From Psammoneis japonica (lineage: Eukaryota): a DNA stretch of 23,618 nt. Position 1 is the first letter of the stretch. The number at the start of each line of letters is the position of its first letter. This document shows, in pieces, positions 1 to 15,831 of this stretch. The position numbers and the translations under genes were made by a program. The notes under the pieces were generated by a model. It was not told where the DNA came from, ran no database searches, and saw nothing but the letters and a program-made list of their open reading frames with translations. The stretch covers positions 310,001-333,618 of the forward strand of contig QPGO01000088.1 in assembly GCA_008632985.1 (NCBI GenBank). The letters run 5' to 3'.

Positions 1-1124
1 TGCACTTGCAATGCATGGGCTTTGTTTGTTCAGTGTGCAGCCCACCAAGTGCCTGGTGTCTTGAACTCATTTTTCCCCTTCAGATCACATCTTGCTGAGA
101 TTCACATTGTGTGGCAGCTGCCAAGCCAGGATCTCAACTCCTTGCTCTGCAGCCCAGTCCACTCTGCAGGCAGCCCTTCTCTTTGCCAAACATCGATTGT
201 CTGTGGCTCTCCAACAGCTTTGCACAAATGCGAGTCAGTGATCTCATTCTGTCATCCTTCCCTGCACAGCACCCTGAATGGACAGTCACTGGGATGCTCC
301 TCCTTCTCCTCTTTCTTTGCATTGTTGCTCCACTGCTGCCAGCTTGAGGGGTGACAGGTTCCAGTCCCAGGTGGGACTCCGTGTGACATTGGGCCCGCAG
401 AATTCTGCGTGCGAGCTCCGCAGTGAATTTGTTGCGCAATGAAAATGCAAATGATTGCCAACAGAAAAAGATGCAATTTTACGAACGCATCTCCTCCTCC
501 ACACTTGCAGCACATCATTGACAGTTTGCCTGGGCATGTTCTTCAGACATTAAAGAACACACCCAGAGCATTTTCATTCTCATGAGTGTTGAAAATGGAA
601 AGCCTTTGGCTTCGCAAAATGGGGAGCATGAAACAATTTCATAGAACATCACATGCAGAAATCTGCGTGTGCGACATGCCATGCGATCCAAAAAACTCTT
701 GATGTCACAATGCAGCAGTGCGAGGTCCCACCTGGAGCTGGAACGTGTCGGGTGCCACAGAGCAAATCGAGCCCACAGACTGCCCTCCTTCTTGGATGAG
801 AGGCTGTGGACTGTGGATTGTCTTGTGACAAAGAGCACCCCCCCCCCCCCTTCATGAGCATCACCACAGCACTCATCAAACAAAGCAGATGATGCCAACA
901 GCTCACTCACACATTGCAATCAATCTGCTGGCAAGTGCGGAACTGCTTGCTTGTTTTTAGCCCTGTGATGTGCATCGTCGCATCGCAAGTGCACGTTTCC
1001 ACGCGCAGGTTCACTTCGGGCCACTGGGGCCCTGCGCACTGCGCCACTGATGCACTCGCATGCTCACGGTTTGGGTTGTGAATGCTGTGTTCTTCGCGGC
1101 TTGTTGCAGGTCACCGCTGCCCAC
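1..1124. mobile_element. TpA-depleted, probably repeat-derived island (family not identified; open at window edge)
   Basis: Only about 4 TA dinucleotides in 1-1140 (near 480, 551, 642, 958; hand count), with abundant TG/CA. Overlapping C/H-rich ORFs on both strands, none recognisable. TE origin is inferred from the same signature in the array and the Pif1 relic. Confidence 0.5.
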
Positions 1125-1938
1125 TGTGGAGGCAGACGGAAAGAACACAACCCTGGGCACAACTGTGCAGGGTCTAGCACTTCTTCTACAGGGTCACCAG
1201 GAAAGCACAGACACCGACTTCCGCTACATCAACCTGCAGCACCCTCCAAGACGCGCAGCTGCGAAGACAACCAAAAAAGAAAACGATCGCGACAATGGCC
1301 TCCCTTGCGTCGCTGACATCTGTGTCTATTTTTGCCGTATTTTCCCGTTTCTTTTCGCAGCATTCGGAGCTTTTATGCAAGCAATGTGATGGGCCAGTGG
1401 TGCTGGCGTTGAGTTCAATCCGTCGAGGCGGATTTGTCGCTGAAGGTGCAGTGCAGAAATTGTGAGAATGCAGCATCAACATGACGGATTTTTGTGATGT
1501 GCTGTTGTGTCTTTGGTGTTGTTTCTCACTTCTTGTCATCATTTTGACGCATGTGCTGTGAGGTGTCCACGGGGCTTGGGTTTTCATGGTGCTGACTTTC
1601 TCTTCGGAGCTTGTCGTTGAATGATCAAAATTGAGCTGCCACTGGAATTTATGGCAAAGAGTTGGCGGCGGTGACATCTCAACATCCCTTGGGCCGATTT
1701 TCGCGATTCTTGTTTCATCATCAATGGAAATTGTACAAGGAATCCAAGAGGCTTGGTTTTGTTGTGCAAAACTCCATTCTGTGCAGATGGATTTATTGGA
1801 TGCCGTGCGCACAGAAATGATGCTTCAATTGGAAGGGGTGCTCCAGCGATGTTGTGGATTGAACAAGGAAGAATGAAGCCCCAGACATGCACTGCATGTA
1901 ACAAGAATGTCAAACATGAATGTCAAACATGGCACGGG

Positions 1939-2250
1939 GTTTTTTGCGTCAGTTGATCGTGTCGGGTTGCCTTGATTTGACAGAACATTCCACGGCACCA
2001 ACCGGTTTGACACGCAGCTGGAAATCGGCTTCCTCCAGTGTTCCAACCAATTTGACCTTGCTTGCATGGGCAAGCTGTTGTCGCCTGGTTCGGGCGTTCC
2101 ATGCGCCTTTAGACCCATCCACCACGACATCGTTGGGGGTTGTTTGAATGGCCTCTGGTTGGTGAAGTCTTGTTCACATTGACAAGTCACCCCGCCAAGA
2201 AATGACGTGAGTGCCATCAAGGTTGGCTTGTGATGCTTTTTAGACGGCAT
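1939..2250 (-). pseudogene. N-terminal fragment of a Crypton-like (tyrosine-recombinase element) protein, unit 1
   Basis: MPSKKHHK...WMGLKAHGTPEP...ARSNWLEHWRKPISSCVSNRLVPWNVLSNQGNPTRS resembles the WMxxKAYGxPxP...RSxSLxYxKKAISYxMPN...WN...GNPTRS N-terminus I recall from stramenopile recombinase-associated TE proteins. Similarity stops after GNPTRSTD. Family recognition is from memory, not a search. Confidence 0.55.
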
Positions 2251-2425
2251 GGTCTCGGTTGCATTGTTGCATAAATCTGTCAAAAACGCGACGTGCCATG
2301 CAACAACCCGGTTGTTTCGATGCGGGAAAAATTCCCGTGCTTCCTCCACAAGAACACGGAAGATACGGTCGCTGAAGTGGGGTAACGGTCAGTACAATGT
2401 GTAGAATTCAACGGAGAAATACTAC

Positions 2426-2486
2426 GGAATACAACATGGGTTGTATTCCCGGGATAATGTGGAGGTAGACGGAAAGAATACAACCC
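2426..2486. repeat. Junction structure: 10-bp hairpin plus 11-bp inverted repeat across the unit junction
   Basis: GGAATACAAC-atgg-GTTGTATTCC at 2426-2449. GGGTTGTATTC (2438-2448) and GAATACAACCC (2476-2486) are inverted across the junction. Equivalent structures occur at the other junctions, and the hairpin is also at 6425-6448. Confidence 0.85.
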
Positions 2487-3271
2487 TGGGTACAACTGCG
2501 TAGGGTCTAGTACTTCTTCTACAGGGTCACCAGGAAAGCACAGACACCGACTTCCGCTACATCAACCTGCAGCACCCTCCAAGACGCGCAGCTGCGAAGA
2601 CAACCAAAAAAGAAAACGATCGCGACAATGGCCTCCCTTGCGTCGCTGATATCTATATCTATTTTTGCCGTATTTTCCCGTTTCTTTTCGCAGCATTCGG
2701 AGCTTTTATACAAGTAATGTGATGGGCTAGTGGTGCTGGCGTTGAGTTCAATCCGTCGAGGCGGATTTGTCGCTGAAGGTGCAGTGCAGAAATTGTGAGA
2801 ATGCAGCATCAACATGACGGATTTTTGTGATGTGCTATTGTATCTTTGGTGTTGTTTCTCACTTCTTGTCATTATTTTGACGTATGTGCTATAAGGTGTC
2901 CACGGGGCTTGGGTTTTTATGGTGCTGACTTTCTCTTCGGAACTTATCGTTGAATAATCAAAATTGAGCTGCCACTGGAATTTATGGCAAAGAGTTGGCG
3001 GCGGTGATATCTCAACATCCCTTGGGCCGATTTTCGCGATTCTTGTTTCATCATTAATGGAAATTGTACAAGGAATCCAAGAGGCTTGGTTTTGTTGTGC
3101 AAAATTCCATTCTGTGCAGATGGATTTATTGGATGCCGTGCGCACAGAAATGATGCTTCAATTGGAAGGGGCGCTCCAGCGATGTTGTGGATTGAACAAG
3201 GAAGAATGAAGCCCTAGACACGCACTGCATGTAACAAGAATATTAAATATGAATGTTAAACATGGCACGGG

Positions 3272-3583
3272 GTTTTTTACGTCAGTTGATCGTGTCGGGT
3301 TGCCTTGATTTGACAGAACATTCCACGGCACCAACCGGTTTGACATGTAGCTGGAAATCGGCTTCCTCCAGTGTTCCAACCAATTTGACCTTGCTTGCAT
3401 GGGCAAGCTGTTGTCGCCTGGTTCGGGCGTTCCATGCGCCTTTAGACCCATCCACCACGACATCGTTGGGGGTTGTTTGAATGGCCTCTGGTTGGTGAAG
3501 TCTTGTTCACATTGACAAGTCACCCCGCCAAGAAATGACGTGAGTGCCATCAAGGTTGGCTTGTGATGCTTTTTAGACGGCAT
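3272..3583 (-). pseudogene. Crypton-like protein fragment, unit 2
   Basis: Same as unit 1. Retains ISSYMSN where the other copies read ISSCVSN. Confidence 0.55.
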
Positions 3584-4604
3584 GGTCTCGGTTGCATTGT
3601 TGCATAAATCTATCAAAAACGCGACGTGCCATGCAACAACCCGGTTGTTTCGATGCGGGAAAAATTCCCGTGCTTCCTCCACAAGAACACGGAAGATACG
3701 GTCGCTGAAGTGGGGTGACGGTCAGTGCAATGTGTAGAATTCAACGGAGAAATACTACGGAATACAACATGGGTTGTATTCCCGGGATAATGTGGAGGTA
3801 GACGGAAAGAATACAACCCTGGGTACAACTGCGCAGGGTCTAGTGCTTCTTCTACAGGGTCACCAGGAAAGCACAGACACCGACTTCCGCTACATCAACC
3901 TGCAGCACCCTCCAAGACGCGCAGCTGCGAAGACAACCAAAAAAGAAAACGATCGCGACAATGGCCTCCCTTGCGTCGCTGACATCTGTGTCCATTTTTG
4001 CCGCATTTTCCCGTTTCTTTTCGCAGCATTCGGAGCTTTTACACAAGCAATGTGATGGGCCAGTGGTGCTGGCGTTGAGTTCAATCCGTCGAGGCGGGTT
4101 TGTCGCTGAAGGTGCAGTGCAGAAATTGTGAGAATGCAGCATCAACATGACGGATTTTTGTGATGTGCCATTGTGTCTTTGGTGTTGTTTCTCACTTCTT
4201 GTCATCATTTTGACGCATGTGCTGCAAGGTGTCCACGGGGCTTGGGTTTTTGTGGTGCTGACTTTCTCTTCGGAACTTGTCGTTGAACAATCAAAATTGA
4301 GCTGCCACTGGAATTTGTGGCAAAGAGTTGGCGGCGGTGATGTCTCAACATCCCTTGGGCCGATTTTCGCGATTCTTGTTTCATTGTTGATGGAAATTGT
4401 ACAAGGAATCCAAGAGGCTTGGTTTTGTTGTGCAAAACTCCATTCTGTGCAGATGGATTTGTTGGATGCCGTGCGCACAGAAATGATGCTTCAACTGGAA
4501 GGGGCGCTCCAGCGATGTTGTGGATTGAACAAGGAAGAATGAAGCCCTGGACACGCACCACATGCAACAAGAACATCAAGTGTGAGTGTCAAACATGGCA
4601 CGGG

Positions 4605-4916
4605 GTTTTTTACGTCAGTTGATTGTGTCGGGTTGCCTTGATTTGACAGAACATTCCACGGCACCAACCGGTTTGACACGCAGCTGGAAATCGGCTTCCT
4701 CCAGTGTTCCAACCAATTTGACCTTGCTTGCATGGGCAAGCTGTTGTCGCCTGGTTCGGGCGTTCCATGCACCTTTAGACCCATCCACCACGACATCGTT
4801 GGGGGTTGTTTGAATGGCCTCTGGTTGGTGAAGTCTTGTTCACATTGACAAGTCACCCCACCAAGAAATGACGTGAGTGCCATCAAGGTTGGCTTGCAAT
4901 GCTTTTTAGACGGCAT
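4605..4916 (-). pseudogene. Crypton-like protein fragment, unit 3
   Basis: Same as unit 1. Starts MPSKKHCK. Confidence 0.55.
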
Positions 4917-5937
4917 GGTCTCGGTTGCATTGTTGCATGAATCCATCAAAAACGCGACGCACCATGCAACAACCCGGTTGTTTCGACACGGGAAAAATTC
5001 CCGTGCTTCCTCCACAAGAACACGGAAGATGCAGTCGCTGAAGTGGGGCAACGGTCAGCACAATGTGTGGAATTCAACGGAGAAACACTACGGAGCACAA
5101 CATGGGTTGCATTCCCGGGACAATGTGGAGGTGGACGGAAAGAATGCAACCCTGGGTGCAGCTGCGCAGGGTCCAGCACTTCTTCTACAGGGTCACCAGG
5201 AAAGCACAGACACCGACTTCCGCTGCATCAACCTGCAGCACCCTCCAAGACGCGCAGCTGCGAAGACAACCAAAAAAGAAAACGACCGCGACAATGGCCT
5301 CCCTTGCATCGCTGATGTCTGCATCTGTTTTTGCCGCATTTTCCTGTTTCTTTTCGCAGCATTCGGAGCTTTCACACAAGCAACATGATGGGCCAGTGGT
5401 GCTGGCGTTGAGTTCAATCCGTCGAGGCGGATTTGTCGCTGAAGGTGCAGTGCAGAAATTGTGAGAATGCAGCATCAACATGACGGATTTTTGTGATGTG
5501 CCATTGCATCTTTGGTGTTGTTTCTCACTTCTTGTCATTGTTTTGACGTGTGTGCTGTGAGGTGTCCATGGGGCTTGGGTTTTTGTGGTGCTGACTTTCT
5601 CTTCGGAACTTGTCGTTGAATGATCAAAATTGAGCTGCCACTGGAATTTATGGCAAAGAGTTGGCGGCGGTGACATCTCAACATCCCTTGGGCCGATTTT
5701 CGCGATTCTTGTTTCATTGTCAATGGAAATTGTACAAGGAATCCAAGAAGCTTGGTTTTGTTGTGCAAAGTTCCATTCTGTGCAGATGGATTTGTTGGAT
5801 GCCGTGCGCACAGAAATGATGCTTCAATTGGAAGGGGTGCTCCAGCGATGTTGTGGATTGAACAAGGAAGAATGAAGCCCCAGACACGCACTGCATGTAA
5901 CAAGAACATCAAATGTGAGTGTCAAACATGGCACGGG

Positions 5938-6249
5938 GTTTTTTGCGTCAGTTGATCGTGTCGGGTTGCCTTGATTTGACAGAACATTCCACGGCACCAA
6001 CCGGTTTGACACGCAGCTGGAAATCGGCTTCCTCCAGTGTTCCAACCAATTTGACCTTGCTTGCATGGGCAAGCTGTTGTCGCCTGGTTCGGGCGTTCCA
6101 TGCGCCTTTGGACCCATCCACCACGACATCGTTGGGGGTTGTTTGAATGGCCTCTGGTTGGTGAAGTCTTGTTCACATTGACAAGTCACCCCGCCAAGAA
6201 ACAACGTGAGTGCCATCAAGGTTGGCTTGTAATACTTTTTAGACGGCAT
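5938..6249 (-). pseudogene. Crypton-like protein fragment, unit 4
   Basis: Same as unit 1. Retains MPSKKYYK (HH in units 1 and 2, HC in unit 3). Confidence 0.55.
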
Positions 6250-6555
6250 GGTCTCGGTTGTATTGTTGCATAAATCTATCAAAAACGCGACGTACCATGC
6301 AACAACCCGGTTGTTTCGATGCGGGAAAAATTCCCGTGCTTCCTCCACAAGAACACGGAAGATACGGTCGCTGAAGTGGGGTAACGGTCAGTACAATGTG
6401 TAGAATTCAACGGAGAAATACTACGGAATACAACATGGGTTGTATTCCCGGGATAATGTACTTGTATCACCGAGTTGTGCGTTGTTGTCTGCCTGTCAAC
6501 TGTCAACTTCTTATCATACAACCTCAACAACTTAGTGAAGCATGCGACGTAAGCT

Positions 6556-8790
6556 ATGGCGATGAATGTTGGATGGAGGTTGTTGTCATATTCAAACACA
6601 CGCAAATGTACACGGAGGTCTTTGTTTCAGTTTCTTGCCCGACGAAACTACAGCGATGAGCCTGTTTCGATACGCGACAATCCAGAAATGATCCAAGACA
6701 TTCCCTTGGAGGACGTTCGATGCTTTTGCTTTATAGCCCACGTTGATCACGGGAAATCTAGCTTAGCGTCACGCGTATTGGAACTGGCGGGGAACTTAGG
6801 TGCCGAAGCTCAAAATGAGGCGCTGCAAGCAGCTTTGAATCACGATCAGAAATTAGATGCCGATGACACTTCCAGCAATGTATCTGAAGCGATTGAAAGT
6901 CATTCGACGGATTCCAAGGAGAACGTTGCTCTGCTAGATACACTGTCTGTCGAAAAGCAACGAGGCATTACAGTCAAGGCATCGGCTGCCACCATGCTTT
7001 ACAAGCACCCTTCTGCTGTGGGCCCTCTTGGTGTGTTGTTGCTCAACATGGTGGACACCCCAGGCCACAGCGATTTCGGAACCGAAGTCTCGCGGTCACT
7101 TTCATTCGTTCAGGGTGCAATTTTGCTCCTGGATGCCACTCAGGGTATTCAAGCTCAAACATGGAATGTTCACGAAAAGGTAATGGCCATTCAGAAACGT
7201 CAGCTCGAACAACGTCAGGCGCAGCTCAAACTATTGGTGGCGTTGACAAAAGTAGATTTGAATCTTGCTCGGCCCATTCATGTTGCCTTGACAGTGTCTG
7301 AGTGGTTGTCTTGGGATGACCCTGATGATATCTTGTGGACAAGCGCTCGGAACCGTATAGGGATAGCCAAGGTATTGGATGCTGTTTGTCGAAACGTACC
7401 TTCACCGACGGCGTTATCGCTTGAGAATGACGACCAGCTTGTAGCGCAAGTTGTAGACTCCTATTTTGACCCGCTACGTGGTGTGGAGTGTGTCGTGCAA
7501 ATCCTCTCAGGGTCCATGGAGGAGGGGGACAAAATTGCAATTTGTAACAATCAAGATGGAACTGATGGAGACAGTACCCGGTCATTTTTTTCTGTGCAGG
7601 AAGTCGGGATACTGCTGCCAAGTAACTTCCGAACGAAAAAGCTGAGTCGAGGCCACATGGGTTACGTTCGCTTTGGACTGCGAGACCCAAGACAAGCTAT
7701 GCCGGGTACCATCTTGACACGACGACAGCATGTGGGAATTGCCTTACCTTCACATCTACTTATCGACAATGAAACTACAAGAAAGGCACAGGTATCAGTT
7801 TTGTACGCATCGGTTCATCCAACCGAAGCTGATGGCTTTGAAGAGCTTTGCCACGCGGTTGATAAGCTGGCGTTGAATGATACAGGTTTGGAAGTCTCCA
7901 AGACGTCATCCACCGGAAATCACGATGGAAACAGCGGCGGACCCTTTCTCGGCCCTGGTCTACGAGTCGGGTTTCAAGGCTTATTGCATGTAGAAGTATT
8001 CCGTCAACGACTTCTTGATGAATTCAATCTCGATGCAGTTGTAACCCCTCCGAAAGTTTCATATACCATCAAAATGTTTCCCAGCAAGAACAACAGAATA
8101 ACAGAACCTTACACATACGTTGTAGAAAACCTAACGGATTGGCCCAAACCAGGGACTAGATTTACAGTCCAAGAACCTGTGGTGCATGTGCGGATCGTCG
8201 CCCCCATGGAGCATGCCGGCAATATAATGGAGCTAGTGAAACGTAAACGAGGGCGGGACCTGTCAAGTCACCCCATGGACGAGGATACGTGGGTTTTCCA
8301 AGCAATCATGCCTTGGGGTGAAGTGGTCACGAATTTTGATAACGATCTGAAGAATGTCACAGCAGGCTACGGAAGTCTTGATACGTGGGAGGCTGACCCA
8401 CCGCTGCAAGAAGCAAATTTGTCCAAGGTTGATATCATGTTGAACGGAGAAATCGTAGAGCCTCTTTCGTTTGTTTGTCATGTCAGCGTTGCACAGACAG
8501 AAGGAAGAGTTGTCTGTGAAAAACTCAGAGAAACGTTGCCGCGCCAGCAGTTCGTAACTGTGATTCAGGCTGCGGAAAATGGGGGGCGAATTATTGCAAG
8601 TGCTCGTATTCAAGCTTATCGCAAAAACGTTTTGATTACCGGTGGCTCTAAATCCGTAGGTGGAGGTGACGTGACGAGAAAGAAGAAGCTCTTGGAGAAG
8701 CAGAAACGGGGCAAAAAACGACAGCAATCTACTGGAAGAGTCACCCTCAGCCAAGCCGCATTCAACAGTGTCATCACAAGATCGTCCTAG
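6556..8790 (+). CDS. GUF1: Translation factor GUF1/LepA (EF4) homologue, probably mitochondrial, 744 aa
   Basis: Motifs FCFIAHVDHGKSSLA (G1), LDTLSVEKQRGITVKA, DTPGHSDF (G3), GFQGLLHVEVFRQRL, LPRQQFVTVIQA and the LepA C-terminal GGDVTRKKKLLEKQKRGKKR. Arg-rich N-terminal presequence-like region. Intronless. Confidence 0.93.
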   Translation: MAMNVGWRLLSYSNTRKCTRRSLFQFLARRNYSDEPVSIRDNPEMIQDIPLEDVRCFCFIAHVDHGKSSLASRVLELAGNLGAEAQNEALQAALNHDQKLDADDTSSNVSEAIESHSTDSKENVALLDTLSVEKQRGITVKASAATMLYKHPSAVGPLGVLLLNMVDTPGHSDFGTEVSRSLSFVQGAILLLDATQGIQAQTWNVHEKVMAIQKRQLEQRQAQLKLLVALTKVDLNLARPIHVALTVSEWLSWDDPDDILWTSARNRIGIAKVLDAVCRNVPSPTALSLENDDQLVAQVVDSYFDPLRGVECVVQILSGSMEEGDKIAICNNQDGTDGDSTRSFFSVQEVGILLPSNFRTKKLSRGHMGYVRFGLRDPRQAMPGTILTRRQHVGIALPSHLLIDNETTRKAQVSVLYASVHPTEADGFEELCHAVDKLALNDTGLEVSKTSSTGNHDGNSGGPFLGPGLRVGFQGLLHVEVFRQRLLDEFNLDAVVTPPKVSYTIKMFPSKNNRITEPYTYVVENLTDWPKPGTRFTVQEPVVHVRIVAPMEHAGNIMELVKRKRGRDLSSHPMDEDTWVFQAIMPWGEVVTNFDNDLKNVTAGYGSLDTWEADPPLQEANLSKVDIMLNGEIVEPLSFVCHVSVAQTEGRVVCEKLRETLPRQQFVTVIQAAENGGRIIASARIQAYRKNVLITGGSKSVGGGDVTRKKKLLEKQKRGKKRQQSTGRVTLSQAAFNSVITRSS

Positions 8791-8880: not shown

Positions 8881-10350
8881 CAACTGTCAGCATGGACGCC
8901 CAAACCCAATCAACCACAGTGTCTGCAGCCACTCAGTCTGTCTTGACACTTGGTGGCATCCGCGCAAATGATGCAAAGCGAGTCTTTGAAGCACGCCAAT
9001 TTGGAAAGGAGGATCCATCTGTTGTGGATGCAGAAGAGGAGGCGAAGTTACCCCATCACTTTGCATTGGAGATTGCTTGTGTTGCTGAGCACTGTGGAAG
9101 TTGCAAACAGTGAAGAAGAAGCAAAGTCTGTTCATGAGAAGTCGGCGACTTTGGCTGCCTTTTACATGGAATGCAATGCCAAGCACCCATCCATGCCATG
9201 GGGAGAGCCACTCAACCAATGCCTTGATCAGAAAGCTCACTCCATGATGGATTGGAAGAATGCAGGAAAAATTGATGGAAAGCTCTTGTTTGGGCGCCAT
9301 TGCTTGTGAGGCTGCTGCCTTGAGTGGAGCCAGGCCATCTCATTCAATCAGCGGCATCCCTCAGGGCATGCATGGTGAGGGTCTCCACACATGCAGAGCT
9401 TGTGTGGGCTGAGTCCAGCTGTTGACAGAAGTTGCAAATGCACCAAGCAGCCTTGAACATCCTTGCACAAAAGAGGGATGGTCTGTTGCGTGAACTTTTG
9501 GGCATGGATCGAGGCAAAGGGAGGACTTGTTGCAAAAAGTGCGCGGTCTGCAAGAGACGTGTGGCAAGAACAACAAAGAAGATGGGGGATCACACCACAG
9601 AAAAAATGCAGCAAAAGGTGGCATTCTGGCAAGCCTGATCTGAGCAATCCAGTGCCAAATTAACCAACCCAAAGTCTTTGTTGACATTGACCGTCTTTTG
9701 CTCTTTTCCAGTTTGACAGGATTGGAAAAAGTGAGCTCTCATCATGAGTGGCTTTCTTGCCAAGCCCACAACTTGTGTTGCTGCTTCACATGCATGCCAG
9801 CAGTCTCGAGAAAAGGACAGACACTGCCCTCCACCTGTTCAATGCACAAAATGATGGATCTGCTCTCAGCAACAGCGGGATCACAGCAAAGGTGGGGTGC
9901 CACATCTCTCCAAACACTGAATTTTTTCTTGTTTGCATGCTGCAGGAAAGTTCATGTGACAAGCAAAGAAGCTCATGCAGACAGCTCCCTCATGCCATGT
10001 CGGCAACGGTGCAACCAAATCATTGCTGGAGGCAGTGATGAATCCTGCTGGTGTGAAAAGCAATGTTGCACAAACCCAGAGCTGCCAACGAAGGTTGTGG
10101 TTGCGGGGCAACAACTTCAAACTACTCTCTGCCTGCAAAGTTGGAAAGTGGCTTGCACTTGGCATGTCCCAAACAGCTCACCAACCATCAGCGCTGATGT
10201 CGGAACGAGACTTGAGCGTTGTGTTCCTCCTGGAAATCAAAATGCTTGGTTTCGGGACGGACGGGCGGCCGCCCCCCCCTGCGCGCGCCCGAGCTTTTCG
10301 CATGAAGCGCGCTCGCCGCAAATTCCGAACTTCATGCCGCTTCATGCCGC
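8881..10350. mobile_element. TpA-depleted island between GUF1 and the carrier gene (unidentified repeat or gene relic)
   Basis: About 4 TA in 1470 bp (near 9049, 9163, 9661, 10123). TA resumes abruptly at about 10351. Broken gene-like frames on +, and a GC-rich right end. Confidence 0.55.
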
Positions 10351-10417
10351 TAATGCTCATTTATATTTCTCTTTTACTGTAAGGTTACATGTGCTTGTAG
10401 AAGTAACATCGGACGCC

Positions 10418-11647
10418 ATGGCGGCAAGAACCGCATCATATGCAACCCCCAGCGATGCGCCTGTAGCCCTTCCACCCATTTTTCATGCAGTTGGAGGCTC
10501 CTTGGGATCGGCCTTGGCGCTGTTATTGTTCTTCCCGTTGGAACGGGCGCGAATCGAAATGCAGTCGGCGGCAGCAGCACAACAACCAGAGAAGCATTCA
10601 GACGACATCGAATCATCAAGTGATGACGAATCTAACAATAAATTGGATTGTGTTCAGCAAAAAGACGATTCTTGGGTTCAATTTGCGGAACAGAAAGATC
10701 GCAAACGAAGCGAGGCCGCCGATGAAGACGAGGCTTCGTGGTCCATGTCGTCGCATTCGCAGTCAATTGAAGACAGGTCCGCGGCAGCAAACAGGAGTGA
10801 GTTGATATCTTGTCTTGTTGGATTAAAAAATCAAGGTGAACTGTACAGAGGGGTGTCACCTGTAATTACTACCATGGCAGCATCCAACTTCGTTTTCTTT
10901 TACGCGCACGCTGTGGCAAAGCGATACCTCTTCCCCGTCGCCAGTTCGATAGGCAAGAAAACCCCGTCACTCTCGAGGTCGTTGTTCGCTTCCTGTCTAG
11001 CCGGTATTGCCAATGTTCTAATTACCAATCCGTTGTGGGTGGCGAACTTACGTTTTGTTCAAGGCGAGTCCAAGACACCTTCCTTGTTTCAAGAAGTACA
11101 TTCCATTCTAAGAGTTGAAGGAAAATCTCGCTTGTGGAATGGAACATGGGCCTCCCTCTTGCTCGTGTCCAATCCTGTAATTCAATTTTTTCTTTACGAG
11201 CAATTGAAAGCCAACCGTATCTCTCGAAGCCTTCAGGGACGCATAACACCGAGACAAAATCAGCAAGCAACAGTGTTGGGGCTCACTCCTGTCGAAGCAT
11301 TCCTTCTGGGAGCCACTGCAAAGGCTGCAGCCACGGTTGCGACTTATCCACTACAGCTTGCTCAAGTCCTGCTGAGAATACAGCAAAAGCATAAAGAGCA
11401 GGACGCAGAATCCAAAGATAGAACTGTCATGGTTTACAATGGTACATGGGATTGTTTTCGCAAACTCTTCAAACAAGGGGGTGTTGCTGGTTTATTTCGA
11501 GGATTGGAAGCAAAACTGCTTCAAACAGTCTTGACGGCAGCCTTCACTTTCCTCACATATGAACAGATAATCGTCTTGCTGCGGGTGGCGTATGTTAAAT
11601 TATATCAACGGCGACTCCAGTCGCGTCGTATATTGAATTCGAACTAA
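10418..11647 (+). CDS. Mitochondrial carrier family protein, peroxisomal PMP34/SLC25A17-like, about 409 aa
   Basis: Three carrier repeats: FPLERARIEMQ, TNPLWVANLR, TYPLQLAQ. PMP34-type motifs SLLLVSNPVIQFFLYEQLK and GLEAKLLQTVLTAAFTFLTYEQI. The start is taken at ATG 10418; the upstream 240 codons of the 649-aa ORF lie mostly in the TA-void island. Confidence 0.88.
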   Translation: MAARTASYATPSDAPVALPPIFHAVGGSLGSALALLLFFPLERARIEMQSAAAAQQPEKHSDDIESSSDDESNNKLDCVQQKDDSWVQFAEQKDRKRSEAADEDEASWSMSSHSQSIEDRSAAANRSELISCLVGLKNQGELYRGVSPVITTMAASNFVFFYAHAVAKRYLFPVASSIGKKTPSLSRSLFASCLAGIANVLITNPLWVANLRFVQGESKTPSLFQEVHSILRVEGKSRLWNGTWASLLLVSNPVIQFFLYEQLKANRISRSLQGRITPRQNQQATVLGLTPVEAFLLGATAKAAATVATYPLQLAQVLLRIQQKHKEQDAESKDRTVMVYNGTWDCFRKLFKQGGVAGLFRGLEAKLLQTVLTAAFTFLTYEQIIVLLRVAYVKLYQRRLQSRRILNSN

Positions 11648-11808: not shown

Positions 11809-13371
11809 TCATGATCGGCGTCCGAAAGAATGAGATTTCGGTTGATGCGAAGGCCACGACGCTTTCTGGGAGTGCATACCGCGAAGAATCTCACCAGCAG
11901 CTGGACGCTTGGTACCACTTACATGAGGACCAGCACGACTGCTAGTTCCTTCGGCATGCATTTCAGACGAGAGTGCTGTTGAAACCAATGTTCGGGATCT
12001 CTTGTGAGCTCGTGGAAACACTTCAGGGGCTTTTTCAGCCTTGAATCGCCGTTTCGCGTCTATGGATGGAGAGAGCGACACTCTGGCCACTCCGCGTGGT
12101 ACAGGGATTTCTTCCAGACGAGGACCGTCGGCGAGAGTGGTAGCCCTGCGATGGACAGAGGCAGACTTGGGCGAGTGACCGAGTGCAATGGGCGGCTTAC
12201 GGGTTGGTACGTTCGATCCGTCCGTGCCAGAGATCTGAAATCGGATAGCCTGATACTCTTGAGGCTTGATCCATACTGTGGCATGCGTGCTCAAGTGACC
12301 GGGCTGTTCCTGTTGATCATCTTGAATTTGAATCCAACCCGGCACCACACGTTCCAGCTCTTGTAAAGCTTTGATCATTTGCTTCTTTTTCGTCTTGGAG
12401 TCTTTGCTCTGAGTTCGAGAAAAGGCTTTCATAACGTCTTCGAGCGTCATGATGCAGCTGCGTTCTTGATGGGACCGGTGCTTGGAGGCTTTCTGATCTG
12501 ACTGAAAGATGCTTCGTGTGGAAGAACCAAGCTGATCTTGACGATTCAGAAGATGTCTCGTATGAGACCAAATGGCATCCGCCATTGCGAGAAGTACCGT
12601 CTTGTCCACGGCGCCTTCTTGATTGACTTGCTGCTGCTGTTTCTGACGAGTGAGCCTTACATCTGCACGAGCTTGTACGCGCTCTTCCAACGTCATTCCC
12701 GGTAGAATGGTGGGCTCGTCTCCTAGTTTCGCAGTGCGGGCGGAAGACTTCTGATTGGACGGCTCGTGAGGTTTTGGCTGCGACGCTTCTCGGTGGGATT
12801 CTATTGCGTTGGCAATGAACCTTTTTTCATCTTCATGGACCTGGGGTCGACTTGCTAGACGCTTGAGTTCCTCCATACGTTTTCCATCAAAGGGCACAAG
12901 CTCCAAGCACCAACTTGACTTCGACTTTTTCGATAAAGCATCGCTCTCATCTTGTTGAAACAAACGATACAACGACGGCGTTCCAATACACACCATATCG
13001 CACAAGAGACGCTCTTCCTTGGAAAAAGTGTCCGTATTTTGAGTCTTTGGCCTTCCCTCTTGCGCTGTTTCTGCGAGCTTGAGCTTTCTGGCCATCACGT
13101 AAAAATCTTGCAGCGGCACGTGGTTCAACGAGGCGATTCGCTTCATACGACGCTGTCTCATAAGGTGCACTTGCAAGGCTCCTTCTGCTTTGACGAGTTG
13201 TGATATGCTCGTTCGAACTTCGACTAGGTCATTGGATCCATGCGAAGAAGGAGAGGACGAAGAAACCGTGGACGTGAAGGACGGAATTGGAATCGATTCG
13301 GCATCCGCAGCGCGAGCATCTCTACCGACGCGCTGTCGTTTGTTTCTCGAGATTTTGGAACGAGAGGACAT
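11809..13371 (-). CDS. CDT1-like replication licensing protein (C-terminal winged-helix similarity); true 3' end may be 11721
   Basis: 520-aa ORF. GMTLEERVQARA and MIKALQELERVVPGWIQI resemble the CDT1 C-terminal SLLERIRAKE and LxxxxPxW motifs. Similarity is weak and from recall. Confidence 0.5.
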   Translation of the reverse strand: MSSRSKISRNKRQRVGRDARAADAESIPIPSFTSTVSSSSPSSHGSNDLVEVRTSISQLVKAEGALQVHLMRQRRMKRIASLNHVPLQDFYVMARKLKLAETAQEGRPKTQNTDTFSKEERLLCDMVCIGTPSLYRLFQQDESDALSKKSKSSWCLELVPFDGKRMEELKRLASRPQVHEDEKRFIANAIESHREASQPKPHEPSNQKSSARTAKLGDEPTILPGMTLEERVQARADVRLTRQKQQQQVNQEGAVDKTVLLAMADAIWSHTRHLLNRQDQLGSSTRSIFQSDQKASKHRSHQERSCIMTLEDVMKAFSRTQSKDSKTKKKQMIKALQELERVVPGWIQIQDDQQEQPGHLSTHATVWIKPQEYQAIRFQISGTDGSNVPTRKPPIALGHSPKSASVHRRATTLADGPRLEEIPVPRGVARVSLSPSIDAKRRFKAEKAPEVFPRAHKRSRTLVSTALSSEMHAEGTSSRAGPHVSGTKRPAAGEILRGMHSQKASWPSHQPKSHSFGRRS

Positions 13372-13714
13372 TCTTAATCGAGAGATTCAATGCGAATATA
13401 ACTGTATGGCACAATCGAAAAAGAGGCTGGAGGGTGCAATGGATGAAATGTTGTCTGTTGGCTATTGCGAGGTGACGGGAGGAAAGCGAGAAGCGAGATA
13501 ACGCGTCGCGCCAAAAAATGTCGGAGGCAAATAACACACAGGGCACGGACAGACAGAATAATGATGACGGAAAGACGCACGGTCAGTACGTCGATCGATG
13601 CGATGATCCTGTATGGTTCGTCGGTCATTTCTTTTTGCGGGTCACAATCTGAAGTCCAGATTGGACGCTTCGCTGAACGGCTGTGTCTCGTTGTCTTTAT
13701 TTACAAACATTTAA

Positions 13715-15459
13715 GATGAAACATCAGATGCTTCAAACAACACAATGACATTGCAATTGTCAAAATGTCAAGCAATGAGAAGGATGTCCGTGGTGCTCTT
13801 TTGTTTCATTTGGAGACACTCGTCAGCCACCAGCAAATCATGGCTTCTCGACATCTGCGCAAGTTTCGTGAAATGTTTCATCAGTGTCATCTTCATCACA
13901 CACCTCTCCAATCAACTTGACAGTGACCCACAAATGGTTGGGTGCAGCAGGTGGAGAGTGCACAATGTTGCACAATGCACCATCAGCAACATGCTCTGTC
14001 TTGCACTTTTGTCATCTCTTCTTTGTGCTTTGTTGCCCAACTCTTGATGAACTGACAAAGCTGAAGACATGATTTGGTGGTGTTTTCATTGTTCATTGTG
14101 ATCAGATGAGTCCTGACAGGCGCCAGCCATTCTCCTCTGGATTTTCATCATTTTTGCACTGACTGACTTTCATGGAAACATCTGAAAGTCGAAAACCTTG
14201 ATCTGCCAGCAATCTTTTCCTCATGGAAAGTGACATCCCAAGCAATGCAACCTGCGCTGTTGCCACTGGTCTTGACAGGAATGCAGTCAACAACGGCATT
14301 TTCAAGAAGGTGCTAGAGGGAACATGCTCAAAATCTCTTGCACAGTCACCTCCAACCCACACCATTGTCCTCTGAGCAAGCAAGAACCTCAAGCGGAAAA
14401 AATGGAACACCAGGTCATGCAAGCATGTGGATTTTCAAGATGAACTGTCCAAGGACATTTTGTTTGCAGTTTGTCCAGATGCTCACGTCAAATGAGCTGG
14501 AAACGAATCAAGGCATGTGGGCTCACTTCTGAAGCTTTGCATGGCCGCCCTGTGACAATGAACCTCGACGAGAACATGTGGAGAAAAAGGAGGCCAGTGG
14601 CACTGCTGGCTTTTTTCAGGGAGTTGAGCTGAAGGAATGTGTTTCTTTGGATGATTTGGAGTTGATGAGGATTGATGGTCATTGGGTGAGGTCAGCCTGT
14701 GTTTTGCAAGTTGAGTCGATTGTCTTGAGGCATGAGGAAAAGGCAGGAGGATGAGAGCTGTTTTCTTGTGTGGCTCCAAGGAGAGAGACATGCTGTGTTG
14801 TCAACTTTCCTGTCCCTGTGATGGGTTTCATTCACAAAAAAAAACAAGAATCAGTCAGAGGAAGCAATTGACCCAGTTCCCAGTTTTGTGCAACAATGCA
14901 GCAACTGTGCACAAGCTCCAGGGGGTGCAAAATTGAGAGCCTGGTTGTTGTCCAACAACAACTTTGACCACACAGACAGCTGGGTTTGTGTGGTTCTGTC
15001 TGCAGTGACAACAAGAAAGGGGCTTTGTCTCAGAAAGAAGTTGGAAGTTCAATGGCAGGAAAATGAAGGGCACGCCATTGGCATCAAGTGAGTTCCTTGG
15101 TCACTTCAGAAGCACAAGAGAGGGCTCCAAGAAGAGAGCTGCCAGGCTCCTCTGGTGCTGCAAATGACTGTGCAAGGCATTCACAACTGAAGGTTGCAAT
15201 CATCAGACAATGACTTTTAATTTTGACAATTCATCAACAATCTGGGCTTGCATCATGTGATTGTCCTTGTCAGGCATAGAAACAAGGGTGTTGAGTGAGT
15301 TGTTTGCGCTGGTTTGAAAGCAAGCGAGTGCGCAAAAAGCCCAAAATCACCGCATCCATCATCTCAACGGAAAAAAGGGCTGTGTCACACACAGTGCATG
15401 ATTGAGGGTGCAAAACAAGACAAAAGCAACTGTCAATGGCATCCCAACCAAAAAATGAC
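13715..15459. mobile_element. TpA-depleted TE relic (Helitron/Pif1-helicase-bearing element)
   Basis: About 3 TA in about 1745 bp (near 14314, 15218, 15277), with sharp edges and few CpG. Contains helicase motifs. Confidence 0.7.
14040..15060 (+). pseudogene. Degenerate Pif1-family (SF1B) helicase
   Basis: Motifs in the expected order, across frameshifts: FGGVFIV..DQMSP (motif III-like, about 14073), CAVATGLDRNAVNNGIF (about 14251), LLKL..GRPV.MN..E...EASGT (about 14526), QFPVLCNNAATVHKLQG (motif V, 14874-14924), WVCVVLSAVTTRKGLCL (motif VI, 14981-15031). Confidence 0.8.
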
Positions 15460-15831
15460 TAAGGCAATATAAAATTCGGAATATATTGCATGTTAGTAAA
15501 CAAAGTAATTTTTATGAAACCCCGAACCATGCGAAAGTCATTGCATTCTATTTTTCATACAAAGACCGCTTGCGAATTTGGTCCATTTTGTCAGCCCCAA
15601 TAAACCTCGACTTCGTCTTACCCGTCTGTCTCCGGTCCGTTTGGGGTCAGGGCAGGGGGGAGACACAGACGGATTCATTCAACAACTCGTCCTTTCTCCC
15701 TCGAGAGAGAAAGATACCATCACTGTGGAACACGACCTAGTTTCTTTTTCTCTCTGAGATTTGGTTGGTATTTACTATCTAGGAACTAAACTATCTCAAA
15801 GCCCACATGTTTGAGTAAACATAGTCCTGTC

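Follow-up and report, generated by a model that had tools for sequence, protein, structure and literature searches.

The stretch of Psammoneis japonica DNA analysed here (QPGO01000088.1:310,001-333,618; 23,618 nucleotides, called the window in the following, its numbering being used for all positions) carries the relic of a Helitron-type Pif1 helicase on its + strand (14220-15052). Its sequence was probably altered in place by a mutational process that turns TpA (TA) into TpG (TG) or CpA (CA) in the genome of a diatom-like stramenopile. It lies in a near-TA-free island of 1.75 kb (13713-15460) between a Cdt1-like gene and a gene with an unannotated open reading frame (ORF), and it is a genuine, independent witness of the TA to TG/CA direction that is also found in a tandem array of the same window (1122-6453).

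Dinucleotide composition of the island

Counting of dinucleotides in the island revealed 3 TA (observed/expected ratio (o/e) 0.02), 22 CG (0.24), 188 TG (1.71) and 193 CA (1.81). The genic DNA of the window has an o/e of 0.54 for TA, 0.96 for CG, 1.15 for TG and 1.14 for CA; at this genic level 68.9 TA would be expected in the island (Poisson P 7e-26). The combined excess of TG and CA (~133) balances the deficits of TA (~66) and CG (~66). The non-coding flanks of the relic (13713-14219 and 15053-15460) are TA-depleted like the relic itself. Altogether, the window contains four discrete blocks that are nearly devoid of TA and rich in TG and CA (1-~2320, ~3830-6230, ~9000-10250 and 13713-15460). 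They are 1.2-2.3 kb long, with an o/e of 0.01-0.16 for TA and of 1.46-1.83 for TG and CA, and the genes flanking them retain TA (o/e 0.54).

Identification of the helicase relic

Pfam searches in the six read-through frames of 13713-15301 revealed no helicase family, and phmmer searches with two raw frames against the PDB detected no Pif1 match. Frame 1, read with TGA as tryptophan (W), matched the metagenomic protein P0001 with an expect value (E) of 5.3e-17, the sole match at E<=10 (5.77 billion proteins, 3446 candidates). BLASTP of the relic frame against P0001 gave E 3e-27. P0001 itself aligned to human PIF1 with E 2.1e-5 in a region comprising the 2B domain and motifs V-VI, where WIYVVLSR of P0001 is paired with the human YVALSR. 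P0001 also opened the family to us: together with 43 homologues at E<=0.001 it makes up the set of 44 homologues used below. Precomputed annotation assigns PF05970 PIF1 to ten of the 44; two of the 44 come from Nitzschia inconspicua, where they bear the name ATP-dependent DNA helicase.

A profile of the 44 homologues, run with filters off against the six frames of the whole window, matched three + strand frames (E 2.3e-34, 1.3e-14 and 1.4e-07), and the - frames gave only E 0.21 and 0.39. With a second profile, built from 15 sequences and covering also the N-terminal half, three + frames reached E 2e-37, 1.2e-15 and 1.7e-08, compared with 0.24 and 0.86 for - frames. The relic spans positions 213-486 of the 518 profile positions, comprising domains 2A/2B and motifs IV-VI in the expected order. 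Profile positions 1-212 (Walker A, Walker B and motif III) found no match in 13300-15400 with filters off; the relic may be 5'-truncated, or the N-terminal part with the ATPase core may have decayed past detection. FGGVFIV near 14070 had been taken for motif III on visual inspection, an assignment that was dropped as unsupported.

The extent of the relic (14220-15052, +) follows from the family profiles, tblastn of the 44 homologues and a map of five in-frame pieces (14220-14540, 14543-14578, 14581-14835, 14838-14924 and 14948-15052). Its ORF is broken by four frame changes and three in-frame TGA codons (14373-14375, 14493-14495 and 14752-14754). Among the 259 columns matched, it agrees with the most frequent residue of the family at 110, and it is ~31-34% identical to its nearest homologues. 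Motif V is intact (TVHKLQG, 14904-14924) and aligned to TvHKLQG of the family and, via P0001, to IHKSQG of human PIF1. Motif VI reads SWVCVVLSAV, where the family has NWiYVvLSR, and thus combines a tyrosine (Tyr) to cysteine (Cys) with an arginine to alanine exchange. WVCVVLSAVTTRKGLCL is read from 14981, where the codons TGG GTT TGT GTG GTT CTG TCT GCA GTG encode WVCVVLSAV. A poly-A run, cacaaaaaaaaacaaga, at 14833-14850 coincides with one of the frame changes, and contigs of a public run (X1) vary in this poly-A zone by an insertion at 14837 and by a base substitution at 14844.

The assignment to Helitrons comes from the wider family. A search of 1.84 billion representatives with the 15-sequence alignment detected 27,241 proteins at E<=0.001, 573 of them at E<=1e-30. 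Many of the top-scoring relatives are ~1,850-1,950 residues long and match at their C-terminus. Among 13 long relatives, chosen for a Pfam scan from 150 listed among the 27,241 matches, Helitron_like_N scored above the Pfam cut-off in nine and below it in one, while three were without it; most of the 13 also carry DUF6570 (architecture DUF6570 + Helitron_like_N + PIF1). Judged from its sequence, the relic is the 3' part of a Helitron RepHel gene, representing the C-terminal ~55% of its Pif1-type helicase. The original prediction had placed a Pif1/Helitron relic at 14040-15060. Its identification is borne out by P0001, the family profiles and the Helitron_like_N domains; as to its extent, homology covers 14220-15052 and nothing significant was found in 14040-14219, so that the start had been set ~180 bases too early. 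When 80 relatives of at least 800 residues were aligned to the window by tblastn, they matched only at 14000-15200, and a Rep/HUH domain was not found. Inspection by eye of the contig loose ends at ~13696 and ~15602 revealed no convincing Helitron termini (5' TC, 3' hairpin with CTRR, insertion at AT); no hairpin scan was made, and TA loss would blur such termini.

Replacement of conserved tyrosines

To compare the relic with its family, we aligned it by hmmalign, with the pieces joined by X at the breaks, and considered the eight columns in which 60% or more of the 44 homologues have Tyr; the same columns were read in a wider set of 191 relatives. At these eight columns the relic has three Cys, three histidines (His), one phenylalanine (Phe), one tryptophan (Trp) and no Tyr. 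The three Cys are encoded by TGC at 14253-14255 in the YA motif (relic NATCAVAT; Tyr in 21/23 homologues and in 115/167 of the wider set), by TGC at 14538-14540 in LLKLY of the family (37/41 and 140/188) and by TGT at 14987-14989 at the motif VI tyrosine (40/40; 176 Tyr and 2 Cys among 178). The three His are encoded by CAT at 14424-14426 (21/27 and 66/126), by CAT at 14680 at the first Tyr of DGYY of the family (40/44 and 95/189) and by CAC at 14969-14971 in wDYtdNW of the family (35/40 and 124/178). Phe (TTT) stands at 14463 (21/33 and 70/180), and Trp (TGG) at 14683 at the second Tyr of DGYY (35/44 and 64/189), 14680-14685 reading CAT TGG. Tyr was thus retained at 0/8 columns, compared with 74/109 for other residues that are equally conserved (Fisher p 2e-4).

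The letters given in the original prediction for the two TGT codons (14987-14989 and 15026-15028) are correct, and the Cys of NATCAVAT is the TGC at 14253-14255. The claim that conserved Tyr became Cys stands for motif VI and for NATCAVAT, whose derivation from a YA motif agrees with its column. It is uncertain for the TGT at 15026-15028 (GLCL), which falls into a mixed Phe/Tyr column (31 Phe and 8 Tyr of 40; 105 Phe and 58 Tyr of 178 in the wider set); a TAT origin of this codon is possible.

Could Cys be native to this helicase lineage, or TA be avoided by selection, for instance through a TA-cutting nuclease or TA-targeting transposons? Cys does occur in two of 178 relatives at the motif VI column, but 176 have Tyr there, and at least one of the two exceptions (P0304) has Cys at other Tyr columns as well and itself looks mutated. 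Selection cannot act on a frameshifted relic, and the loss of TA extends to the non-coding flanks. We give these explanations next to no credence.

The spectrum of the relic was analysed by counting non-synonymous single-base reversals of its codons that improve the score in the family column by 2 bits or more. Such gains were obtained for 17/102 reversals of the TA type, 18/99 of the CpG type and 9/59 of A>G after A, compared with 125/1492 in a pooled control of transversions (112/1312) and non-CpG C>T (13/180). The odds ratios against this control are 2.2 for the TA type (p 0.01) and 2.4 for the CpG type (p 0.003). The enrichment is modest, as would be expected given the distance of the relic from its nearest homologues. 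Two conserved asparagine codons of the relic, at 14596 and 14978, show A>G after a 5' A (AAC>AGC and AAT>AGT).

Ordinary neutral decay, by transition bias and CpG deamination and without any TpA-specific process, would account for the frameshifts, TGA stops, transversions and CpG loss of the relic, and a single transition suffices to turn a Tyr codon into one for Cys or His. It does not account for an island with 3 TA instead of 68.9 in which other conserved residues are largely kept. This explanation is very improbable, also in view of the closely similar sequences described in the next two sections.

TA changes in the tandem array

The array consists of four copies of 1333 bp without indels that are 94.5-97% identical. 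TA is the ancestral state in the array because many sites read CA in one copy and TG in another. Each copy has 61 inferred ancestral TA sites; of the resulting 244 site-copies, 72 are CA, 69 are TG and 103 have kept TA, these array counts being copies and not independent events. Changes of TA to CA or TG make up 141/164 array changes. Of the 23 remaining variable columns, 11 are CpG transitions and 10 are A>G/T>C changes at sites other than TpA, the majority of them AA>AG or the complementary change; 2 are of other types. This bears out the earlier proposal that relic and array share the same direction of change, and the array and the reversal test agree with the predicted TpA enrichment of the spectrum. 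That nearly identical copies differ almost exclusively at TA is again at odds with neutral decay. The minor class of A>G after A, present in array and relic, may reflect a secondary neighbour preference of the agent.

The array also bears on the possibility that a transcript underwent ADAR-like A-to-I editing and that the edited copy was then reverse-transcribed and inserted. ADARs favour a 5' U, as stated in the Discussion of a preprint on Bigelowiella natans by Mettrop et al. (bioRxiv 10.64898/2026.01.13.699255). In the array, however, both strands are hit equally, site by site, and a runs test for strand-coordinated CA versus TG was not significant. Neighbouring copies carry different outcomes and the edges of the TA-free tracts ignore the unit edges, which argues that the change happened in place. 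Helitrons, furthermore, move as DNA. An origin by transcript editing is therefore highly unlikely.

TG states are partly common to copies 1-3, which suggests, as far as can be read from the copies, rounds of mutation and duplication. Each unit contains two long ORFs on the - strand (212 and 187 aa), for which no Pfam or ESM Atlas match was detected.

Related helicases in metagenomes and databases

The helicase DNA of 36 metagenomic loci encoding relatives showed a TA o/e of 0.18-0.81, with 35/36 at 0.35 or above, in a sample for which one of two search patterns requires intact Tyr codons and favours unmutated copies. The coding sequence of this family is, by these 35 loci, normally full of TA. 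The lone low locus (L011, TA o/e 0.18) shares 92% DNA identity with another locus (L007), both encoding the same Helitron helicase (L011:1-977 and L007:3555-4531; 13 versus 31 TA). A codon-level comparison, as had been proposed for intact homologues, was run on this close pair. It revealed 77 differences in 975 aligned bases, of which 23 are TA>TG/CA toward L011 and 3 the reverse; 19 of the 31 TA sites in L007 are TG or CA in L011. TA makes up ~3% of the sites of the pair, yet 23/77 differences, which neutral decay does not explain either. The depletion in L011 ends near base 1000, with an abrupt rise of TA to 12-13 per 100 bp.

The two proteins are identical at 274/307 residues, and neither contains a stop. 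Seven of the nine Tyr of L007 are changed in L011 (four to Cys and three to His), including NWMYVVLSR to NWMCVVLSR in motif VI. This pair and the codon table support the claim that the process inactivates without creating new stops; the three in-frame TGA and four frame changes of the relic are due to other decay.

Several database proteins of the family are poor in Tyr or carry Cys and His in its place. At conserved Tyr columns P0304 reads C,C,F,Y,C and P0180 H,C,Y,C,Y. In P0176, only 2 of 617 residues are Tyr, and P0251 was grouped with these proteins. To judge from these residues, P0304, P0180, P0176 and P0251 are probably translations of partly TpA-mutated, stop-free Helitron copies.

Copy number and further features of the window

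Copy number was estimated as summed contig depth in run X1, a single public run (541 contigs at >=85% likeness). Over the relic region, the four bins that together cover 13352-15635 had a depth of 396-1249; the bin after them had ~200, and the flanks had 55-61. This high summed depth indicates that the element is multicopy in run X1, where many copies of the Helitron family occur at 85-99% likeness. The TA-poor block at ~9000-10250 had a depth of 58-66 in this run and is single-copy; since it is affected as well, present-day repetition is not required. The block differs from the corresponding run contig at 9/882 bases, and neighbouring genic contigs differ at 3/2832 and 5/3323, so that it diverges ~10x more often than the adjacent genes. 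Among the differences listed in it are at least 4 CpG transitions and at least 1 TA>TG change, which hit one of the few TA left in the block.

The Helitron relic is a transposon-derived target, and the other three TA-poor blocks are without recognisable content in Pfam and the ESM Atlas. Pfam searches in six frames of 1-1121 and 8900-10302 gave no match. The part upstream of the array (1-1121) is practically TA-free (4 TA per kb) and CG-poor. The block at ~9000-10250, almost TA-free with a CG o/e of 0.22, is fused in frame with a mitochondrial carrier ORF (9644-11647) because stops are scarce there. The gene set of the window is of eukaryotic type. In addition to the carrier it includes LepA/GUF1 (6553-8790), the Cdt1-like protein (11809-13386), a DnaJ-X protein and a class III aminotransferase, for whose ORF only bacterial aminotransferase clusters matched in the ESM Atlas. 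The named relatives of the LepA of the window are all diatoms (53-61% identity), and its best match, an unnamed sequence, reaches 69%; on these grounds the source is called a diatom-like stramenopile. A search of the whole window with Rfam gave 0 matches.

Weighing of the evidence

Several points weigh against a TpA-specific process acting on the relic. The absence of Tyr is automatic in a TA-free island, and any bias towards transitions would favour Cys and His as replacements of Tyr; their presence at 6/8 columns is by itself not specific. For these two reasons we place the weight on the contrast to other conserved residues and on composition. The Tyr columns with Phe and Trp are not explained by TA>TG/CA alone, and the TGT at 15026-15028 may descend from Phe. 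The relic's own spectrum is only twofold TA-enriched, and the majority of its differences appear, from its distance to the homologues, to reflect lineage divergence. The sample of metagenomic loci is, as mentioned, biased towards unmutated copies. Finally, TA loss does not follow repeats throughout: the middle of the array (~2320-3830, ~1.5 kb) is spared and keeps 50/61 TA sites, and the stretch 15460-15602, directly after the island and up to a contig loose end at 15602, is TA-rich although it lies inside a high-depth multicopy bin. The latter may belong to another repeat of younger age, or it may be a part of the element that was not targeted.

Proposed mechanism and implications

In the course of events that we propose as likely, the relic, a piece of a Helitron RepHel gene that lacks its 5' part and is shifted in frame, was mutated in place after its insertion. 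TpA would be changed to TpG or CpA by an A:T>G:C transition, which can strike either strand because TA is palindromic and yields the two products in similar numbers. This conversion would have run to near saturation, accompanied by a slower decay of CpG to TpG/CpA. As every Tyr codon is TAY, all tyrosines were lost, mostly to Cys (TGY) or His (CAY). An enzyme may drive the process and direct it at DNA that is silenced or foreign, in line with the proposal made for B. natans.

As the leading candidate agent we suggest, with some reservation, a DNA adenine deaminase with a strong 5' T preference, by analogy with the ADAT2/TadA-like enzymes named in print. The minor AA>AG class fits a deaminase that prefers a 5' T strongly over a 5' A. 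Because TA is palindromic, whether A or T is the base attacked is not readable from the sequence. A modified thymine at TpA, of the 5-hydroxymethyluracil or base-J type and made by a TET/JBP-like enzyme, could mispair with G and give T>C. Hydroxymethyluracil prefers TpA in dinoflagellate DNA, and the equal numbers of TA>CA and TA>TG in the array (72 versus 69) would be expected, as the palindromic TA allows. But the 10 non-TpA A>G/T>C changes, mostly AA>AG, fit a deaminase at least as well, and the only published candidate, in the text of the B. natans preprint, is an ADAT2-like deaminase (bioRxiv 10.64898/2026.01.13.699255). Thymine chemistry is thus unlikely.

If a TpA-directed process of this kind operates, enzymes of mobile elements would be disabled by deleting every Tyr codon, catalytic or in motifs, with reading frames left open. 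Tyr codons are obligate targets, so HUH nucleases and recombinases would lose their catalytic tyrosines, and helicases the tyrosine of motif VI. The mutated copies would persist as long stop-free pseudo-ORFs and be annotated as proteins by gene callers. Such ORFs would pollute protein databases, and P0304 and P0180 look like examples. Stop-free ORFs without Tyr and with an excess of Cys and His may serve as a diagnostic. The saturated footprint described here and the environmental Helitron copies suggest a genome defence of wide occurrence in one of the major groups of marine phytoplankton. We tentatively raise the possibility that diatom-like stramenopiles share the TpA-specific hypermutation defence of B. 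natans and that it is widespread, perhaps ancestral, in the SAR (stramenopiles, alveolates and Rhizaria) supergroup.

Comparison with known systems

The relic resembles Helitron RepHel/Pif1 helicases of superfamily 1B (PF05970, PF14214 and PF21530) in having motifs IV-VI and the 2B domain in order. It differs from an intact RepHel in that the window contains neither a Walker A/B part nor a Rep domain with it, its frame is broken and its Tyr are replaced.

Like fungal repeat-induced point mutation (RIP), the TpA process would be a burst of dinucleotide-specific transitions, in place, that disables repeated or mobile DNA. RIP changes C to T at CpA, creates TpA and stop codons and needs duplicated sequence. 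Here the signature is opposite: TpA is lost, CpA and TpG are gained, no stops are created and the single-copy block at 9000-10250 is also affected.

By analogy, the pattern may also be placed beside deamination-type hypermutation of invading sequences, as by APOBEC3 (C>U in DNA), ADAR (A>I in double-stranded RNA) and DNA-active ADAT2. ADAR and tRNA adenosine deaminases act on A after U, akin to the TpA context. Unlike the substrate of ADAR, the one here appears to be chromosomal DNA, and the TpA specificity is far tighter than the neighbour preference of ADAR.

Our literature search, which included diatoms in combination with RIP or TpA/TpG, revealed one matching report of TpA hypermutation, the B. 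natans preprint, and no other. According to its text, two integrated viral regions mutate ~1000x faster than the rest of the genome in mutation-accumulation lines, and 230/231 single-nucleotide mutations in these regions are A>G or T>C, on TpA (bioRxiv 10.64898/2026.01.13.699255). Mettrop et al. propose an ADAT2-like DNA adenine deaminase; the targets they describe are integrated DNA of nucleocytoplasmic large DNA viruses (NCLDV) and virophages, low-TpA coding sequences are reported to be enriched for transposon domains, and a single-copy region can be a target (bioRxiv 10.64898/2026.01.13.699255). A term search of the main text of the preprint found no mention of diatoms, helicases, Helitrons or tyrosine.

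By this comparison the pattern of the window fits the B. natans process in specificity, strand symmetry and clustering: as far as described in the preprint, both show A:T>G:C changes at TpA on both strands and clusters that are depleted of TpA and enriched in CpA and TpG. The lineages differ, a diatom-like stramenopile here and a chlorarachniophyte there, and the change is near saturation here (TA o/e 0.02, compared with 0.45 given in the preprint for the NCLDV region). The targets here are a Helitron helicase relic and a tandem array, and CpG is co-depleted. In contrast to the mutation-accumulation lines, the process is known here from sequence comparison. The mutational process itself has already been described in the 2026 B. 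natans preprint; what is new is that it occurs in a diatom-like stramenopile, that it acts on Helitrons and that Tyr codons are lost wholesale without new stops.

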